A stretch of 64,000 nt of DNA from IMG/VR virus record IMGVR_UViG_3300020185_000014, positions 1 to 64,000 of that record; one strand, written 5' to 3'. Origin of the DNA: a virus. Below are positions 3,205 to 12,051 of this stretch, one piece after another. The position numbers were made by a program, and so were the translations under genes. Position 1 is the first letter of the stretch, and the number at the start of each line of letters is the position of its first letter. The notes under the pieces were generated by a model. That model did not search any database. It was given only the letters and a program-made list of their open reading frames with translations, and was not told the origin of the DNA.

Positions 3205-3882
3205 TTATTCTCCGTATCTACTAGACTTTTCAAGGGCGACCCAATAAGATAGGTCCATTTCTTTGTTAACAAATTGTGAGATAAGTTTTGAAGAAATATT
3301 AACATCATAATCACCGTCAATCATTTTAAGATTGCGGATGTCATAAATGAAATCAAATTGCTCATCTTCAAATTCACCATCTACATCGATTGAAAAAGCA
3401 TTCGACGTTCTGTCGTTGACGTCCAAGACAGAAATAGATAGTACATTATCTCTTGAGGAGACAGACATCTCCGTGTGTCCTAATACAGATGATGCTCGTT
3501 TTACACGCGAAAGAGTTTCACGGTCCAAAACAAAACTAACTTCTGCCTTCGGCATTTCTATGCCCTTCTTATTGGGTTTGGTTAGGTTTTCAATGTCCGA
3601 GTAAAAATACTTGGTTCTTGAACGACCCGTACCGTCACCAACAATGACATAGGATTCTTCGAACTTCAAACGAGGACTATCGACTAGAGATAGCACGCTT
3701 AGAAATTCATTGAGATCGTAGATCCCAAACGTTTGTGGGAATTCAACATCGAGTACCGATGTGCTCAACAGGTTCTTTGCTTCAGACACAGTCTGAACCA
3801 CGTTTCCCTCATTAATTACAACATTCTGATTAATAGAAGCAAAGTTCTTAAGAACCTGCAATGTGTTGTCGCTAATTTCCAT
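3205..3882 (-). CDS. gp45: DNA polymerase sliding clamp gp45
   Basis: TLQVLKNFASINQ...FGIYDLNEFLSVLSL...YWVALE; synteny. Confidence 0.96.
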   Translation of the reverse strand: MEISDNTLQVLKNFASINQNVVINEGNVVQTVSEAKNLLSTSVLDVEFPQTFGIYDLNEFLSVLSLVDSPRLKFEESYVIVGDGTGRSRTKYFYSDIENLTKPNKKGIEMPKAEVSFVLDRETLSRVKRASSVLGHTEMSVSSRDNVLSISVLDVNDRTSNAFSIDVDGEFEDEQFDFIYDIRNLKMIDGDYDVNISSKLISQFVNKEMDLSYWVALEKSSRYGE

Positions 3883-3908: not shown

Positions 3909-3937
3909 ATCTTACTTTTATTTTCGCTCAATGTCAA
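3909..3937 (-). promoter_or_regulatory. Sigma70-type promoter for gp45
   Basis: TTGACA-N17-TAAGAT on the minus strand, just upstream of the gp45 RBS. Confidence 0.7.
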
Positions 3938-4344
3938 GAGAAAAACTGGTCTAACAAATTTTTGTTTTGCTTTGGATGCGGTTTCTTTTTGGTTGGAGTT
4001 TTGACTATTGATAGTTCTCCAAAATCTAAAAGGTTTGTTTGCTCTTCGACGGGACGGTTTCGTTTGAGATATGCTCGCTTTGCAGATGCAATACTTCCAT
4101 TATATTGTTTATAACATGTAGCGCATAACTCTCGAAGATCGTCAGCATGCGATGTATATCCCCGTTTTACTTTAGATTTTTTATAGAAGGCTGTTATGGA
4201 AAAACGTTTACCGCATCCCCAGAGGCACAATTTTGTGTGCATTGTGTTATACCCAAACAAGGTTCTCGCATACAAACCACCTTGAGTAGTCGTCCGTGTG
4301 TGGACTCCTGGCGTTTCTTCTAACGATGTCACTTTATTAGACAT
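3934..4344 (-). CDS. Small basic Cys-containing protein (possible Zn finger), last gene of the modification cassette
   Basis: CLWGC and CATC pairs; TAATG overlap with glf; C-terminus LLDQFFS. Confidence 0.65.
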   Translation of the reverse strand: MSNKVTSLEETPGVHTRTTTQGGLYARTLFGYNTMHTKLCLWGCGKRFSITAFYKKSKVKRGYTSHADDLRELCATCYKQYNGSIASAKRAYLKRNRPVEEQTNLLDFGELSIVKTPTKKKPHPKQNKNLLDQFFS

Positions 4345-5360
4345 TACAATATTTCCTTTAAATATTTTTTTGATCCCGCTAATGATTGGTTAATTACTTG
4401 GTGCATATCCAGATACTGATAAGTCCCGCAACGACCGATAAAGGTCATGCGCTTGTTATCAATTTCTGTATATTTGTTATAAATCGCAGAGCTTAATCCG
4501 TCAGTAGTTTTGACAGGATAGTACCGCTCTTTCTGATTTGTTTTGTAATCACAGGGCCACTCATAGGTCAACGTTGTGAATCCTGGATTGTTTCCGTGAT
4601 TAGGAAAATTCTTCCACTCGGTGACCCTGGTCGGACCCTCCCATGTGGTGAAATTGGTAGTCGCCGTTTTAAATACATTCTTCTGGGGCAGCGTTACCGT
4701 TTGAAACTTGATTGATCTATACGGTAACTCGCCAAATATAAAATGATAATACTCGTCGATAGGCATGCTGTTAAAAGTATGCGTATATTCTTTTTCCATA
4801 TCATAAGAAAACGGTGTTTTAAGGCGAACAGAGATGTTCTCGTGATCTAAGATATTATCAATCAAAACGGTATAACCATCCTTCGGCATCTTCTGTATAG
4901 TGTCGTCGGGAAAATAATATTCATTGTAATCATCACGAACAGGAACGCGCTCTAATATTTTCGGATTTAGTTCTTCCAGAGAAATCCCCCACATTTTCTT
5001 TGTATACGGTTTAAAGAATATGTCGGCAACGTTCTCTTCTCCCACGAGCATCGATGTTTCTTTGTTTACTGGCAGAGTATAATATTCCCCATCGGTATGC
5101 AACGCTAAGACTTTATGCTTGTAATCGACCCACTCGGTATACTGAGACAACCACTTAAACACTCTTTCGTTACTGGTGTGAAAAATATGCGGTCCATATT
5201 TATGAACCCTGATATTATCTTCATTAAGATAATCAAACGCATTACCGGCGGTATGGTCCCGCGAATCAATCACGTCAACTCTTGCCCCTGCTTCAGCAAG
5301 TTCTCGAGCATAGACTGCGCCAGCAAACCCAGCGCCGACAACCAGATACTTCCTATCCAT
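4344..5360 (-). CDS. glf: UDP-galactopyranose mutase
   Basis: FAD motif VVGAGFAG, HKYGPHIFHT, RYYPV, FIGRCGTYQYLDMHQVI. Confidence 0.93.
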   Translation of the reverse strand: MDRKYLVVGAGFAGAVYARELAEAGARVDVIDSRDHTAGNAFDYLNEDNIRVHKYGPHIFHTSNERVFKWLSQYTEWVDYKHKVLALHTDGEYYTLPVNKETSMLVGEENVADIFFKPYTKKMWGISLEELNPKILERVPVRDDYNEYYFPDDTIQKMPKDGYTVLIDNILDHENISVRLKTPFSYDMEKEYTHTFNSMPIDEYYHFIFGELPYRSIKFQTVTLPQKNVFKTATTNFTTWEGPTRVTEWKNFPNHGNNPGFTTLTYEWPCDYKTNQKERYYPVKTTDGLSSAIYNKYTEIDNKRMTFIGRCGTYQYLDMHQVINQSLAGSKKYLKEIL

Positions 5361-6381
5361 TCAAATAGTCCTCAACTTGTTTGATTGTTATTTGTTTATT
5401 CATAGGTTGAGATTCATAATACGCTATTTTTTGCTCGAAAGCAAGTTTTTCTAACTGACCTTCCGAAAGTTGTTCAATTTTCTTACAAGTCAAACCAATA
5501 TAAGGTTCGCCGAATATTGATGCTTCTTTATCATCGCAGATTAAAATTGACTCACAATCAGCAACTTGTTGCGGTCTCGCACGCCACCAACCAGAACCAG
5601 CATGCCAGTATCCTGCCATTAGAATACCCCATTGCTCATTGAAGGTCGTTACCATATCTTCTTCCGATAATCGAACTTGTTTTTTATTTTTAGATCCATA
5701 TTGTTTGATCTCCCACTTTGCTTCTGCGGTGATTCGGTTAAACCACTTCTCGGTCTCGGACTGAATCAATCCAGCAAAGTTAAAGATCTTTGCTTTATCG
5801 TCATCAAACAATGTTGTTCTAGGTTTGCGGTGTAGCGTGAACGGCGGCGGAAACCAAGAATGGATTTTATCGTTATCCCAATCAGAAAATAACATTTTAA
5901 AATCGCCACCCAAATGCGCAGGTAATGTGATAGGTCGATCCATGTTTGCTATCATGGTAAATGCTTTTTTGAAATCCGCTTTCCACTCTGGGCGAAGTTC
6001 TTTTTCAGCAACAACATTATTGACGTAATAATCGTTCGTGACCGAATCGACGACTTTGTCAATATTGTTTTTCCATGTATTAATGTTCTTGGGAGATTGC
6101 CAATCTTCAATAGCAAAAAGAACATCGTCGCGTTGAGCGATAGTCCAAAGCGCGCTGTAGATATGCGTGTTAAATGGAGATATGTGCATTAGAAACACAA
6201 CCACCTTATCATAAACAGATAAGTCCTCGCCGATCCTAACAGGTCTCTGTTCTACTTCATGCCCCATAGACTCAAGGCATTCGACTAGACTGAAATGGGC
6301 AGTACATAAACCGATCTGAGAAGACTTATGAAAATTCTTCGTACAAGCGGCGCGTGTGAACCCTGTGATTAATACTTTCAT
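5353..6381 (-). CDS. Probable glycosyltransferase (GT-B fold, candidate DNA glycosyltransferase)
   Basis: Rossmann-like start MKVLITG...LESMGHEV. A second beta/alpha domain (FNFAGL, IKQYG, WGILM...WWRAR) gives a size and layout like T4 beta-glucosyltransferase. Lies between sugar-nucleotide genes. Family is inferred. Confidence 0.62.
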   Translation of the reverse strand: MKVLITGFTRAACTKNFHKSSQIGLCTAHFSLVECLESMGHEVEQRPVRIGEDLSVYDKVVVFLMHISPFNTHIYSALWTIAQRDDVLFAIEDWQSPKNINTWKNNIDKVVDSVTNDYYVNNVVAEKELRPEWKADFKKAFTMIANMDRPITLPAHLGGDFKMLFSDWDNDKIHSWFPPPFTLHRKPRTTLFDDDKAKIFNFAGLIQSETEKWFNRITAEAKWEIKQYGSKNKKQVRLSEEDMVTTFNEQWGILMAGYWHAGSGWWRARPQQVADCESILICDDKEASIFGEPYIGLTCKKIEQLSEGQLEKLAFEQKIAYYESQPMNKQITIKQVEDYLNG

Positions 6382-6408
6382 CCGTTACCTCAATTTAATT
6401 GAAAGACT

Positions 6409-6437
6409 ATTATGACATATTATTACAAAAAAGTAAA
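6409..6437 (-). promoter_or_regulatory. Sigma70-type promoter with extended -10, upstream of the glycosyltransferase
   Basis: TTTACT-N17-CATAAT with TG just upstream of the -10; GAGG RBS downstream. Confidence 0.6.
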
Positions 6438-6457
6438 GCGGTAAGTCGTTGATTTTA

Positions 6458-7348
6458 TTATTGTTTTTGTTCTAGGATGTATTGATCCAAACACATGTCC
6501 TGGATTGTGCGCTTTAGAGTAATTCTCTCTGATAAATTAGTAACCTTACAAGAGATCGCGTCTCCTGCACGTCTAGGCGCAACCTCATAGGGCAATAGGA
6601 TGCCTGTTGCATCATAAAATGCGTTATAGACATCCCATACGGTGAAACCCTTATTAGACCCCAATTCTTCATATTCAGTATTCAAAGGTCCATTCGCGCA
6701 TGCAGACTCAATAGCATCAGCAAGATCCAAGACGTGTACATAATCTCTAACGCATGTTCCGTCTTCCGTCGGATAATCATCACCAAATATTTGTAACGTT
6801 TCCCTTCTCTTGCAAGCAACTTCTGCCATTACACGGATGAGGTGTGACGCTGGACCGAGTTGTTTGAGGTTCCCGTCTGATCCGGAAACGTTGAAGAATC
6901 TAAAGATCGTCCACTCTTTACCAAATTTATTTTTCCTAATTGCCCACTCAGCACAGGTTTTAGATAAAGCATAAGGCGAAGCGTTTTCTAAGGAAGAAGA
7001 ACTGCCCGCAAAAATAATATGTTTCGCATTAATGTGCTCGAGCACTTCCTGAGTGCCTCTGATATTGGCATCAAAATATTCAAACGGGACTTCAATCGAA
7101 GGGGCGACTAAGTTCCTTCCCGCAAGATGAACACAAACGTCAAACTCAGTTTCCATTAAATCGCGATTCGTTATTTTGCAGATATCTTCTTTATAGAAGA
7201 TGTTACAGTAATTCTCGATTTCGTTATACTCATCATAAACGCCATAAGAATCTAAACCAGTTACTTTATATCCACGAGTTCTTAATATTTTAACAACATG
7301 TGATCCGATGTAACCTGCCGCACCCGTGACTAAAACTTTTTTGCTCAT
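6458..7348 (-). CDS. galE: UDP-glucose 4-epimerase (extended SDR)
   Basis: VLVTGAAGYIG, catalytic YALSK, RFFNVSG, DGTCVRDYVHVLDLA. Start moved to ATG 7348 (TGATG overlap with the TET gene, GGAGG RBS). Confidence 0.92.
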   Translation of the reverse strand: MSKKVLVTGAAGYIGSHVVKILRTRGYKVTGLDSYGVYDEYNEIENYCNIFYKEDICKITNRDLMETEFDVCVHLAGRNLVAPSIEVPFEYFDANIRGTQEVLEHINAKHIIFAGSSSSLENASPYALSKTCAEWAIRKNKFGKEWTIFRFFNVSGSDGNLKQLGPASHLIRVMAEVACKRRETLQIFGDDYPTEDGTCVRDYVHVLDLADAIESACANGPLNTEYEELGSNKGFTVWDVYNAFYDATGILLPYEVAPRRAGDAISCKVTNLSERITLKRTIQDMCLDQYILEQKQ

Positions 7349-8661
7349 CAGAAAAATGCCTCCAAGGTTGATGTTTGCGGGTGATACTCTTCGAGTAAGT
7401 CTTCGCCGCCGTTGGTTCTCAAGTAGTCGTACCATTCTTCGCTCTGCCACATCTTCGCAGTGACGCCATTAAACTTAGGATCAGACGAAGCGAGTCTCCT
7501 CGAAGTTACAAAATTGTATCGTTGTTGCTCATATTCCCAAGACCCCAAGTCGATCATGTTTTCTCTAAAATAACACACCAAAGAGATACGCTCCATATCC
7601 TCAACGGTTTTTCCTGCTGGGGGAATGATTTCTGTGTTACCATGGATGCCTTCGTGATTATTGATTAATAACACATCTCCTGGTCGAACATTAATCGCGA
7701 TGCGGTATTCCGGAAGAACTAGATATCCCCCCTCCCATTCTTTTTCTTTAGACACGACTGTTAAGTTTGAGAAACCTTCGGTCAAATCACCAGCGTCTCG
7801 ATGCGCTGCAGTTCTGAAGTTCTTATTAACAGTTATTGTAGTGAATGGCGTATTCTTACCGGCAACTCTAAATCTAGGGTCAATCTTATCAGCATAGGTT
7901 TCTTGGGCGGCATGCCGTGTCGGCATTAATTGAGAAAATTGCTCTGCGAGAGTCATCATAAAAGGAAAACATTTTTTATACAAATCAGGATTCTTTTCAG
8001 TGTATGACGTTGCTCGACCATATGGTATTCTTGGATACCGATCAAAGAAACCGGCGATGCCGGAATTAACAGCATTGGCATATGTCGTGTCAGAAATATA
8101 TTTCGTTTTTACATGGAGCGCATCTGCAGATGCCTCATCCGAGGGCATGGACTTCCACATCTCTACTTTATGATTGAAGAAATCCTCATAAGTGAAACCT
8201 TCGTCTGCAATTTTACTTCGCAACCAAACCATGCCTCTGGTAGATTCTACTGGATTTCTTTTATGCCTAAGTTCTATTTCTGTAATGGGATCATCGCCGA
8301 ATATGTTAATCTGATCATTAATAACACAATCAAGAATATCCCATTGTACTGCAGTAACCCAATCGCGATTGCCGAGTTTTCCTTGTTTCGGACCTGCCGC
8401 CATGCCTCTATTTTGAGTAGGTTGGGCAGCACTGACCAGACCCTCGTATGCCCAGAGTTGTTCTCGCGCCGAGAATACGTTTTTCCTGAACTTAAAGATA
8501 CATTCGCTTTCTGATAACTCGGAGTTATCTCCATCGAGCGCACCCACTTTATAAAAATCTACGTCATCTTCAATAAGAGTATCATAATGACTTTCGTCGA
8601 GATACTTACCAAGTAAGTTTGTACAATCGTGTTTGTGCGTGGCTACAATAACCTGCGTCAT
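7348..8661 (-). CDS. TET/JBP-family 2-oxoglutarate/Fe(II) 5-methylpyrimidine dioxygenase
   Basis: FTTITVNKNFRTAAHRDAGD (HxD), LLINNHEGIHGNT (distal His), ERISLVCYFRE (2OG-binding Arg). Confidence 0.88.
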   Translation of the reverse strand: MTQVIVATHKHDCTNLLGKYLDESHYDTLIEDDVDFYKVGALDGDNSELSESECIFKFRKNVFSAREQLWAYEGLVSAAQPTQNRGMAAGPKQGKLGNRDWVTAVQWDILDCVINDQINIFGDDPITEIELRHKRNPVESTRGMVWLRSKIADEGFTYEDFFNHKVEMWKSMPSDEASADALHVKTKYISDTTYANAVNSGIAGFFDRYPRIPYGRATSYTEKNPDLYKKCFPFMMTLAEQFSQLMPTRHAAQETYADKIDPRFRVAGKNTPFTTITVNKNFRTAAHRDAGDLTEGFSNLTVVSKEKEWEGGYLVLPEYRIAINVRPGDVLLINNHEGIHGNTEIIPPAGKTVEDMERISLVCYFRENMIDLGSWEYEQQRYNFVTSRRLASSDPKFNGVTAKMWQSEEWYDYLRTNGGEDLLEEYHPQTSTLEAFF

Positions 8662-8673
8662 TATGTATGCTCC

Positions 8674-10380
8674 TCAAGCGATTTTGCTAAAATTCTTTTG
8701 CTTCGTGAATTGGATTGTGTTTTCAAAGTGTTCTCCCATCACGTCACCTTTGTGAGAGATGACATAGACATTTGTATCATTACCTAAAGTATCTAATATT
8801 TTTATCAAATTGTCAACCCCATCAGCGTCTAAAGATGAGTCAAAGGTTTCGTCTAAGATTAGGAGGTTTGTGGCAACGCTGTTTTTCATCTTAGCGATCA
8901 TGCGCCAAGTGAATAACAACGAAAGGTCGATTCGCTGCTTCTCGCCTTCTGAAAACGAATCATAACTAAACGCATCGCGGTGTCGAGAACGAATAGTTTC
9001 TTTGAATGCTTCGTCAAGGTCGAAGTGGACGTAGAAGTCCAGAACCTGTAGATATTGGTTGGTGAGTTTATTAATGACGGGAAGATACTGCTTAATGATT
9101 TTAGTTTTAATCCCAGTGTCTTTAAGTAACTCAGTTATGACATTATTGTATTCTCGTTGCTCTGCGAGCGCGAGGCGTTCTTCCGTGAGAGAGCATTTCG
9201 CACTTTCTTCACGTAGTAAAGTATCTCGTGCTTCTTGCACGCTATGTACACCTGTTTGGAGTTCGGATAACTCACTCTGTAAAGAATCAATTCTTCTTTG
9301 GCTCCAGACAATCTTTTCTTTGGTTGTTCTGATTTCATTAAGTTTTTCAGTTTCGATATCAATCGCATCTTGTAGGGTGTCCTTTGCGTTATCTAACTCA
9401 CAGATTTTATGTTGGGCGGCAAGTTTCGCTTCGCCGAGTTCGTCACACTTGTGCTTGGCGTTCTGTACCTTATCCAATCGGAAGGAGGTTTCGATGGTCT
9501 GTTGACAGGTTGGACAGTCGTCGTTATCTTCATAGAATACTATTTCTTTTTTAGTTGCTTTTTGTTTTGACTCGAATTGAAAAACGTATTTTCCTATCTC
9601 TTGCATTTTAACATCGAGGGCGCGTTGTTTAGTCTGCAGATCAAGTAGAATATCGTCTTCCCATTCGGTCAACTGGGCGTTAAGGCGGGCCAACTCTGAC
9701 TTATGCTCGTCAAGTTCAGTTTCCTTTTCTTTACGAGCGGTGTCAGAGATTTTAGTTAATTCGCGGATGTGTTTTTTCTGCGAATCAATTTTAGTTTCCG
9801 TCAACTCTACTTGATGTAAATTATCTCTAATCTTATCTTTTAGGTTGGCGGTCTTTTCTTTAAGTAACGAGTTCATCTTTGAGAACACATTGATATCTAG
9901 TAGATCTTCAATGACGTCTCGCCGGTGCTGGGCGGGTAGTTGCATGAAAGGAACAAAACTGCTACTGCCCAGCACTACGATCTGATGAAATGATTTGTGA
10001 TTCAGTTTTAAAATATTTTGTTCGAGGATCTTCTGATACTCTTTGGCATGAGAAGATTGATTGACCATATTCCCGTCAGTATAGATTTCAAAGAGGTTCG
10101 GTTTCAACCCCCTGACGATTCTGAAATGCTGATCGTATGCATCAAACTCAACCTCAACAACACAATCTTTATCGTTGATCGTGTTAATCAATTGCGGTTT
10201 ATTGATATTTCTATGCGCCTTACCGAACAATGCAAAAGAAAGCGCATCAAGTAAAGTAGATTTACCAGCGCCGTTTTGTCCAACAATCAAATTAGTTTTG
10301 AAGTCTGTTAGGTTTATCTTGGTGAAACAATCACCGGTGGATAGAAAATTCTTATATTTTAAAGTCTTAAATGTAATCAC
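8674..10380 (-). CDS. gp46: Recombination endonuclease subunit gp46 (Rad50/SbcC-like)
   Basis: GQNGAGKST, CPTC zinc hook, FSEGEKQRIDL signature, LILDETFDSSLD. Confidence 0.97.
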   Translation of the reverse strand: MITFKTLKYKNFLSTGDCFTKINLTDFKTNLIVGQNGAGKSTLLDALSFALFGKAHRNINKPQLINTINDKDCVVEVEFDAYDQHFRIVRGLKPNLFEIYTDGNMVNQSSHAKEYQKILEQNILKLNHKSFHQIVVLGSSSFVPFMQLPAQHRRDVIEDLLDINVFSKMNSLLKEKTANLKDKIRDNLHQVELTETKIDSQKKHIRELTKISDTARKEKETELDEHKSELARLNAQLTEWEDDILLDLQTKQRALDVKMQEIGKYVFQFESKQKATKKEIVFYEDNDDCPTCQQTIETSFRLDKVQNAKHKCDELGEAKLAAQHKICELDNAKDTLQDAIDIETEKLNEIRTTKEKIVWSQRRIDSLQSELSELQTGVHSVQEARDTLLREESAKCSLTEERLALAEQREYNNVITELLKDTGIKTKIIKQYLPVINKLTNQYLQVLDFYVHFDLDEAFKETIRSRHRDAFSYDSFSEGEKQRIDLSLLFTWRMIAKMKNSVATNLLILDETFDSSLDADGVDNLIKILDTLGNDTNVYVISHKGDVMGEHFENTIQFTKQKNFSKIA

Positions 10381-11448: not shown

Positions 11449-12051
11449 TTATTCCATAAATTTAGTTAAGTCTGAATCAACTGTAATAGTTCTCTTTTTC
11501 CTTTTAGTTTGTTTGCCGTATTCCGAAACTTTGCTGTCGTTATCTTTAACCAAGTCAATGCGCAATCTAAGTTCATCAACAAACGCTTGAGTCTTTTGAT
11601 GAGCATAAGAATTGTCGCCTTCTTCTTCGACAAGAAACTCTAGACCAGACTCAAACAAATATTTGAGTTTGATATCTTGTTGCTTCTTTTCCTTTTCGAT
11701 CCTGCGAAGAAAGGCATACCAAGATATTTGAGTGAAGTATGCGAATGCATTTGGTTTGCCTGTTCTGGTTGCAGTTTCTAGATTATAGTTTTCAATTGCT
11801 TTCAAACAATTCTCAACGGCATCCATAACCATTTCTTCTCGATAAGTGTACCGAACAAAATTAGACTTATGCGATAAACCTTCAGCAATCTTTAAGAAGC
11901 ATTGAGCGACATAGTTGGGAACCTTGGGCGCTACATTACCTGCGGCGACCTGTTCGCGCTTATGCGATACGTATGCAACAACTGCAGCAGAAAACTCTGC
12001 ATTGTTCACATAATGTGGTTTTTCTTTGGGTTTTAGTTTCTTCTCAGACAT
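11449..12051 (-). CDS. gp55: Late-transcription sigma factor gp55
   Basis: HYVNNAEF, FLKIAEGLSHKSNFVRYTYREEMVMDAVENCL, NAFAYFTQI. Confidence 0.96.
   Translation of the reverse strand: MSEKKLKPKEKPHYVNNAEFSAAVVAYVSHKREQVAAGNVAPKVPNYVAQCFLKIAEGLSHKSNFVRYTYREEMVMDAVENCLKAIENYNLETATRTGKPNAFAYFTQISWYAFLRRIEKEKKQQDIKLKYLFESGLEFLVEEEGDNSYAHQKTQAFVDELRLRIDLVKDNDSKVSEYGKQTKRKKRTITVDSDLTKFME

Follow-up and report, generated by a model that had tools for sequence, protein, structure and literature searches.

Does a T4-like phage that carries a TET/JBP-family oxidase beside sugar-nucleotide genes and a glycosyltransferase decorate its own DNA and, if so, on which base and with which sugar? The question is raised by a cassette of five genes between gp46 and gp45 in IMG/VR virus record IMGVR_UViG_3300020185_000014, whose first 64 kb out of 116 kb are hereafter called the window; the record is estimated to be about 71% complete. 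With a probability of roughly 0.6, we read the cassette as a post-replicative DNA hypermodification route that would give galactofuranosyl-5-hydroxymethyluracil (galactofuranosyl-5hmU), a product whose base, sugar and anomeric linkage are all inferred from sequences and predicted structures. The broader proposition, that the genes serve the glycosylation of a hydroxymethyl pyrimidine in DNA, is very probably correct. Four of the genes would make up the route:

7348-8661, minus strand: TET/JBP-family (5mYOX) Fe(II)/2-oxoglutarate DNA dioxygenase, 437 aa (PF12851, E = 8.7e-26)
6458-7348, minus strand: compact GalE-like UDP-hexose 4-epimerase, 296 aa (PF01370, Epimerase, E = 7.3e-33, scored on the 6458-7450 frame)
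5353-6381, minus strand: GT-B glycosyltransferase, 342 aa (phrog_14998; predicted fold, no Pfam model)
4344-5360, minus strand: compact UDP-galactopyranose mutase (Glf), 338 aa (PF03275, E = 3.2e-50, plus an FAD/NAD-binding domain)

The glycosyltransferase has a predicted BGT-like fold

The product of 5353-6381 gave no Pfam (E <= 0.01) or NCBIfam match and no match among PDB sequences, either as a single sequence or as a profile of 30 homologues, and it did not match the model of the TET-associated glycosyltransferases (TAGT, PF20691). A structural comparison with T4 beta-glucosyltransferase (BGT), suggested in the preliminary description, was more informative. The AlphaFold2 model built with the 30 homologues (pLDDT 89, pTM 0.88) showed a GT-B fold, and its best solved match, at the top of 998 chains, was T4 BGT, aligned along the whole length of the protein (Z 17.4, root-mean-square deviation 3.8, 295 of 342 residues; Foldseek 1.2e-5), at about 12% identity in the structural alignment. 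The model also matched T4 alpha-glucosyltransferase and the DNA glycosyltransferase of phage HY126, lower in the list. The family numbers no fewer than 456 proteins and 460 viral loci and is confined to phages; the enzyme of the window is predicted to be a hydroxymethyl-pyrimidine DNA furanosyltransferase.

TET and hydroxymethylase genes alternate at one slot

An IMG/VR scan with the glycosyltransferase alignment gave 460 confirmed loci; 80 of these were fetched for comparison, and the queries run against them were the window proteins plus the ThyA-family genes of relatives. In 54 loci, the sequence upstream of the glycosyltransferase extended for 3 kb or more; of these, 14 contained TET and 36 a ThyA-family gene in its place, no locus had both and four had neither. 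The order was constant and on one strand: gp47, gp46, then TET or the ThyA-like gene, an optional epimerase, the glycosyltransferase, optional Glf, again an optional epimerase, and finally gp45 and gp44, with further genes in places after gp46 and before gp45. Since the glycosyltransferase follows whichever enzyme makes the hydroxymethyl pyrimidine, TET or ThyA-like and never both, the arrangement points to DNA as its target, as expected of a DNA glycosyltransferase and not of an enzyme acting on protein or lipopolysaccharide (LPS). The alternation also held in five long ThyA-type records, in all of which a weak PF00303 match adjoins the glycosyltransferase: PF12851 was not found in them, while a control search recovered it in the window's own record.

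The short ThyA-like proteins of the sister cassettes have the catalytic Cys, an Asp at the position of D169 and an Asp at that of N177. Because Asp replaces Asn at the ThyA N177 position, these genes read as the cytosine type, as in T4 gp42. A 5-hydroxycytosine route of the RB69 type was also considered for the sister cassettes and rejected, as the proteins keep Asp at D169 and do not show the D169N signature linked to 5-hydroxy-dCMP synthases (PMC13326640). In a quick, midpoint-rooted maximum-likelihood tree, the TET-linked glycosyltransferases formed one clade (SH-aLRT 99, stem length 1.25), sister to the hydroxymethylase-linked ones (96); those from loci lacking Glf formed two nested clades.

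We further noticed a clade of epimerase-glycosyltransferase-Glf loci in which TET and the ThyA-like gene are both missing upstream (L071:5366-7059; also L034, L055 and L080). Here, a canonical ThyX directly precedes the epimerase, and before ThyX stands a conserved 342-aa open reading frame (ORF) with 57-61% identity among the four loci. Checked as a hidden oxidase, this ORF gave no Pfam match and no profile similarity to TET or to the glycosyltransferase.

The family is also found in cultured Straboviridae. Aeromonas phage 25 (L005:3896-6077) and its relatives, Aes508 and phiAS4 among them, as well as Erwinia phage FBB1 (L004:4937-7062), carry a Glf-glycosyltransferase pair between motA and asiA, and these phages also encode a gp42-like ThyA homologue. 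From this gene content, the DNA of Aeromonas phage 25 and Erwinia phage FBB1 is predicted to bear galactofuranosyl-5-hydroxymethylcytosine (galactofuranosyl-5hmC), of which we found no published report in either phage.

Thymine is the likely substrate of the oxidase

The product of 7348-8661 scores above the gathering cut-off of PF12851 (90.5 bits against 34.9; 93.3 bits in a six-frame search). Thirty homologues share H287-x-D289, H340 and R358 without exception, and in alignment these correspond to the iron and 2-oxoglutarate residues of human TET2, carried on a double-stranded beta-helix. The best Foldseek matches of the AlphaFold2 model (pLDDT 81) were NgTet1 (6.5e-9), human TET2 (1e-8) and CcTet, within a range to 5e-8. 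At the sequence level, the single protein found no relative among PDB sequences, and its profile gave only sub-threshold alignments to TET2. The family is large: 2745 proteins fall within E <= 0.001, and its viral loci number at least 599.

TET enzymes need a 5-methyl group on their substrate, which could be that of thymine or of 5-methylcytosine (5mC). The preliminary description had preferred the route from 5mC to 5-hydroxymethylcytosine (5hmC) while remarking that the window holds no C5 methyltransferase. The remark can be extended to the whole 116-kb record, where PF00145 was not found; nor was it found in the complete circular C48C1 genome, which carries TET, glycosyltransferase and Glf, in DLP_6 or in 14 TET-cassette records. 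Neither the window's own record nor C48C1 showed a ThyA-family gene able to make 5-methyl-dCMP, and the only thymidylate synthase of the own record is a canonical ThyX. ParB (PF02195) was not found in the same record, at its completeness of about 71%.

The partners of this TET family in other phages are informative. Among 50 fetched TET-family loci with enough downstream sequence, a homologue of the PF18751 P-loop kinase stood right after TET in 25, GATase_6 in about 11, the GT-A enzyme TAGT (PF20691) in four and the present glycosyltransferase with Glf in one; one TET homologue (P0197) is itself a PF18751-PF12851 kinase-TET fusion. P-loop kinases and amidotransferases have been described as thymine-hypermodification machinery, and phage 5mYOX enzymes that lack a neighbouring C5 methyltransferase have been shown to be thymine dioxygenases, such a methyltransferase occurring in only 6% of phage 5mYOX pathways (PMC13229309). 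With no C5 methyltransferase found and kinases and amidotransferases as the usual partners of the family, oxidation of thymine to 5hmU is the better-supported first step. We therefore do not favour the 5mC route, and the thymine substrate that had been offered only as a fallback, with a base-J analogue as its product, becomes the better reading: TET 7348-8661 is predicted to be a thymine oxidase, with 5mC a less likely substrate, that would generate the hydroxymethyl acceptor, and we consider 5hmU rather than 5hmC the likely base.

The same TET family also occupies the gp46-gp45 slot of other T4-like phages (L109:9335-9883, L101:10536-11288 and L113:10105-10911), followed there by P-loop kinase 3 (PF18751), a glutamine amidotransferase or, in L113, the GT-A enzyme TAGT. 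Judged by its gene content, the slot hosts interchangeable tailoring modules built on one oxidase.

The sugar donor is probably a furanose

Both sugar-nucleotide enzymes belong to recognizable families and keep their functional residues. By far the top NCBIfam match of the epimerase was TIGR01179 galE (2.1e-54; 184.6 bits), and all its strong PDB matches were GalE, the best being a Y299C mutant. Its TGAAGYIGSH (the NAD Rossmann motif), SSS and SPYxxSK motifs align to E. coli GalE, with the Ser, Tyr and Lys corresponding to S124, Y149 and K153; the protein is shortened by a deletion after the Ser motif. A Cys aligns with the gatekeeper position, Y299 in E. coli and C307 in human GalE, where Cys goes with acceptance of UDP-GlcNAc and UDP-GalNAc.

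Glf matched PF03275 with 171 bits and PF13450 with 66 bits, contains VGAGFAG, the GxGxxG motif of its N-terminal FAD-binding Rossmann domain, and YGPHIFHT, and scored 2.5e-80 (270.3 bits) against TIGR00031 and E = 1e-64 against the UDP-galactopyranose mutase (UGM) structures of D. radiodurans and K. pneumoniae. In HMMER alignments to 3gf4 and 1wam, all of the K. pneumoniae UGM residues F151, F152, Y155, T156, W160, R174, R280, Y314 and Y349 are kept. The preliminary description had called the TET/JBP, GalE and Glf motifs intact, and this holds for catalytic and binding residues aligned to solved or characterized relatives.

Do these enzymes travel with the glycosyltransferase? A survey of the co-occurrence of TET, galE, glycosyltransferase and glf had been proposed, and in each of the 14 TET-type loci for which both flanks were available we found a GalE-like gene, the glycosyltransferase and Glf together. 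The short-chain dehydrogenases/reductases of variant cassettes vary in length and share 31-59% identity with that of the window, and all are GalE-like. Together, GalE and Glf make up the textbook route from UDP-glucose through UDP-galactopyranose (UDP-Galp) to UDP-galactofuranose (UDP-Galf).

A different furanose context appeared among distant relatives. Homologues of the glycosyltransferase (E = 5e-18) in Morganella phage Rgz1 and in Providencia phages lie between an arabinose-5-phosphate isomerase gene and an NDP-sugar pyrophosphorylase-like gene. In Morganella phage vB_MmoM_Rgz1 (L099:4372-7776), the pyrophosphorylase-like gene encodes 549 aa and a deoxycytidylate-modifying gene is nearby; by its genes, this locus resembles the arabinofuranosylation clusters of the RB69 type, with the glycosyltransferase family of the window as its transferase. 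The isomerase and pyrophosphorylase gene set has been assigned to UDP-arabinofuranose synthesis in RB69 and DLP3 (PMC13326640). The family thus has two independent links to furanose-nucleotide synthesis, through GalE and Glf and through arabinofuranose (Araf)-type clusters, which makes UDP-Galf the likeliest donor; that the donor is a furanose (Galf) appears reasonably probable from these sequence relationships.

Some TET cassettes are more elaborate. In L014:5866-8010, for example, a PF01467 cytidylyltransferase-like gene and a PF00534 glycosyltransferase (GT4) stand between TET and the BGT-like glycosyltransferase. Such additional genes suggest decorations of greater complexity, for example di- or oligosaccharides.

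Proposed pathway and alternative explanations

In the pathway that we propose, the TET/JBP dioxygenase would oxidize a pyrimidine of the phage DNA at its 5-methyl group, most likely converting thymine to 5hmU. By family assignment, the GalE-like epimerase would turn host UDP-glucose into UDP-galactopyranose, whose ring the compact Glf would contract to give UDP-galactofuranose. The BGT-like GT-B enzyme would then flip out the hydroxymethyl base and transfer the furanose to its hydroxyl, as its fold and gene linkage suggest. The expected product is 5-(galactofuranosyl-oxymethyl)uracil, a base-J analogue with Galf in place of glucose, and its presumed role is protection from restriction and other DNA-targeting defences. 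That oxidase, sugar-nucleotide enzymes and BGT-like transferase form one DNA-hypermodification route had been claimed beforehand, and both the predicted fold and the linkage of GalE and Glf to the glycosyltransferase bear this out.

Several observations weigh against galactofuranosyl-5hmU as the product, some on the side of the base and some on that of the sugar. The sister clade of glycosyltransferases evidently serves 5hmC and the ancestral acceptor of the family may be hmC, although the tree is a quick one with a midpoint root; a C5 methyltransferase could lie in the missing part of the record, and sparse 5mC could come from host methylation. These points would favour oxidation of 5mC, supplied by a phage methyltransferase encoded elsewhere or by the host, to 5hmC, from which the glycosyltransferase would make galactofuranosyl-5hmC. 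The constant pairing of the sister clade with a cytosine-type ThyA homologue indeed shows that an hmC acceptor context exists in the family, and phage TETs of clades A and B are 5mC dioxygenases (PMC8256090). Those clade A and B systems, however, have a C5 methyltransferase adjoining TET, which the window does not, and the failure to find PF00145 in any of the records searched, the lack of a ThyA-family source of 5-methyl-dCMP in the own record and in C48C1, and the kinase and amidotransferase partners usual for this TET family together leave galactofuranosyl-5hmC an unlikely product. As regards the sugar, the two subclades without Glf mean that the link between the glycosyltransferase family and a furanose donor is not a strict one; the gatekeeper Cys of the epimerase, shared with the Y299C mutant that is its best PDB match, would also allow UDP-GalNAc; GalE and Glf both score below their NCBIfam equivalog cut-offs (262.3 and 303.75 bits); and Glf lacks some 35-40 residues of its helical domain, a gap that splits the TIGR00031 match into two stretches, in a compact form common to the related loci. 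The pathway might then modify DNA with a sugar other than Galf, using UDP-Galp or UDP-Glc directly or, if the epimerase and the mutase handle substrates of the N-acetylhexosamine or pentose kind, adding GalfNAc or Araf, as the distant homologues in arabinose-type clusters would allow. We regard this as rather unlikely, given that Glf is part of every TET-type cassette and translationally coupled to the glycosyltransferase, keeps the UDP-Galp-binding residues of solved UGMs, is accompanied by a GalE-like gene in most loci and would have no obvious purpose with a pyranose donor.

A more radical alternative separates the genes: TET alone would act on DNA, while GalE, Glf and the glycosyltransferase would glycosylate virion proteins or host envelope glycans. 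Glf does normally serve the glycans of cell wall and LPS, GT-B enzymes take acceptors of many types, and Gordonia phages have weak homologues of the glycosyltransferase that, in the context examined, show no obvious tie to DNA modification. Against this stand the position of the glycosyltransferase, which in 50 of 54 loci comes directly after one of two genes, TET or the dCMP-hydroxymethylase-like one, its best structural match, a DNA glucosyltransferase, and the location of the cassette in the replication block and not in the structural block, so that we consider a non-DNA role very unlikely. Galactofuranosyl-5hmU, made after replication, remains the product that we favour.

Gene layout and neighbouring features

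The source of the record is, from its protein relationships, a T4-like (Kyanoviridae-related) phage: gp46 of the window shares 54% identity with gp46 of Phage C48C1 (Kyanoviridae) and about 47% with gp46 of Synechococcus myoviruses. Compared at the nucleotide level with 50,697 phage records, the region gave no match, and relatives were found at the protein level only. On the minus strand the order is gp47, gp46, five tightly packed co-oriented genes, gp45 and gp44. The slot is bounded, and its fifth gene placed, as follows:

8674-10380, minus strand: gp46, SbcC/Rad50-like recombination nuclease subunit, upstream boundary of the slot (AAA_23 and SMC_N matches)
3934-4344, minus strand: small basic 136-aa ORF with CxxC...CxxC (4 Cys) (only a weak Lar-like phrog match, 0.0068)
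3205-3882, minus strand: gp45 sliding clamp, downstream boundary of the slot (PF09116, E = 9.4e-11)

Five co-oriented genes between gp46 and gp45 had been reported, and their coordinates stand, with the start of the epimerase corrected to 7348: translation begins at the ATG there and not at an upstream GTG, a GGAGG precedes it and a TGATG overlaps the TET stop. TET and the epimerase share 1 nt, as do Glf and the small ORF, the glycosyltransferase and Glf overlap by 8 nt, and the epimerase and the glycosyltransferase are separated by a spacer. From their sequence, the five cassette genes are translationally coupled. The spacer, at 6382-6457, is the sole intergenic gap in the cassette; it is 76 nt long and AT-rich, with a weak sigma-70-like match, TTTACT-17-CATAAT. 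A promoter and terminator scan of the cassette region did overall no better than shuffled sequences.

The small ORF at 3934-4344 had been included as a cassette member, an assignment that we drop. It gave no Pfam or NCBIfam match and, among the 80 related loci, was present only in the same phage (L010). Being restricted to that phage, it is not counted in the pathway and is probably accessory.

A further feature concerns the C-terminus of TET (7348-7380), which ends in ...TSTLEAFF; the family keeps this tail as SSLExFF, and L433 and F436 do not vary. Similar tails end the small cassette ORF (NLLDQFFS, 3934-3960), another ORF (KGLQNFF) and a gp55-like protein (SDLTKFME), the last two at record positions 77630-77656 and 11449-11475. 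A prediction of three gp45 copies with TET residues 390-437 scored 0.33 against 0.02 for the best control (partner pLDDT at least 36), with runs agreeing in at least 47% of contacts; in calibration, 58 of 80 solved complexes and 2 of 110 mismatches attained this mark, yet of those solved complexes only seven had scores no higher than 0.60, as did both mismatches that passed. RB69 clamp-peptide structures exist, and likeness to them may contribute to the score. All these tails resemble T4-type clamp-binding tails, and a tether of TET to gp45 through its own tail, which the prediction supports weakly, is noted as a lead only.

Relation to known systems

How much of this is new? Phage pathways combining TET, an epimerase and a glycosyltransferase have been published (PMC8256090; bioRxiv 10.1101/2023.12.21.572611; PMC13229309), and for the 'subclass II' clusters glycosyltransferase activity depended on the partner epimerase (bioRxiv 10.1101/2023.12.21.572611; PMC8256090). 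Contexts adjacent to gp45 or the clamp, and the fact that ThyS and 5mYOX rarely share a locus, have likewise been noted (bioRxiv 10.1101/2023.12.21.572611). The 'subclass II' 5mYOX clusters resemble the window in that a TET-family oxidase acts after replication, followed by an epimerase and by a glycosyltransferase that decorates the new hydroxyl. They differ in having an adjacent C5 methyltransferase and acting on 5mC/5hmC, with no mutase or furanose mentioned, and the glycosyltransferase of the window comes from another family, one that lacks a Pfam model. Closer in their first step are the ParB-independent phage T-dioxygenases (PMC13229309), TET/JBP enzymes that lack a neighbouring C5 methyltransferase, often stand beside glycosyltransferases and make 5hmU post-replicatively, as is predicted for the window; the TET of the window is about 440 aa long and has the conserved C-terminal SSLExFF tail.

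Furanoses on phage DNA have precedents. Arabinofuranose has been shown by nuclear magnetic resonance, with RB69, DLP3 and HY126 carrying arabinofuranosyl-5-hydroxycytosine, and a phage Glf has been proposed to make UDP-Galf for DNA glycosylation in Rhizobium phage RL38J1; RL38J1 and the Pootjesviridae carry galactosyl-5-hydroxycytosine, its acceptor made before replication by a D169N ThyA variant (PMC13326640). The window shares with these systems the proposed use of Glf for UDP-Galf and, through its Morganella and Providencia homologues, Araf-type clusters. It differs in the acceptor, which in RL38J1 and RB69 is 5-hydroxycytosine, whereas the ThyA-like genes of its sister cassettes keep the Asp at D169. 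Neither the RL38J1 nor the RB69 glycosyltransferase was among the sequence matches of the window enzyme.

T4 BGT (CAZy GT63) has the same compact GT-B fold at a similar size (351 against 342 aa) and is likewise a replication-block gene product that glycosylates a hydroxymethyl pyrimidine in duplex DNA, as predicted here; the sister cassettes of the window enzyme use a gp42-like hydroxymethylase, as T4 does. The two enzymes have no match at sequence or profile level, however, the predicted donor is UDP-Galf and not the UDP-Glc of T4, and the 5hmC acceptor of T4 is made before replication, whereas that of the window would be made afterwards by TET. Base J of kinetoplastids, made by JBP1/2 and JGT, offers the parallel of a TET/JBP enzyme oxidizing thymine in DNA to 5hmU and a glycosyltransferase adding a hexose; there, JGT is a GT-A enzyme, the sugar is beta-glucopyranose and the system is a eukaryotic regulatory one, not phage counter-defence.

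The novelty claimed in the preliminary description was overstated, since TET with an epimerase and a glycosyltransferase was already published and UDP-Galf had been proposed for RL38J1 (PMC13326640). What is not in the published texts cited here is the coupling of Glf to TET, the BGT-fold glycosyltransferase family and the exchange of TET and hydroxymethylase at one slot.

Significance

Taken as a whole, and only tentatively, we propose that T4-like aquatic phages make galactofuranosyl-5hmU, which is chemically undescribed, after replication, and that, at one slot, the same furanosyltransferase family is combined either with TET or with a dCMP hydroxymethylase of the gp42 type; cultured phages such as Aeromonas phage 25 and Erwinia phage FBB1 would then carry galactofuranosyl-5hmC. 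As a candidate DNA furanosyltransferase, a member of the family might also serve to label 5hmU or 5hmC, and cultured carriers exist. The sugars of phage DNA so far comprise glucose, other hexoses, N-acetylhexosamines, hexuronic acid, arabinofuranose and a galactose of unsettled ring form. If our reading is true, a furanose hexose would join them, along with a phage counterpart of base J bearing a different sugar. A Galf-decorated base should escape glucosyl-hmC-specific defences and many restriction enzymes, and so bears on phage-host arms races. The swap of TET and dCMP hydroxymethylase at a single slot is, finally, a clean natural experiment, showing that one kind of acceptor can be supplied interchangeably by a pre-replicative or a post-replicative route.

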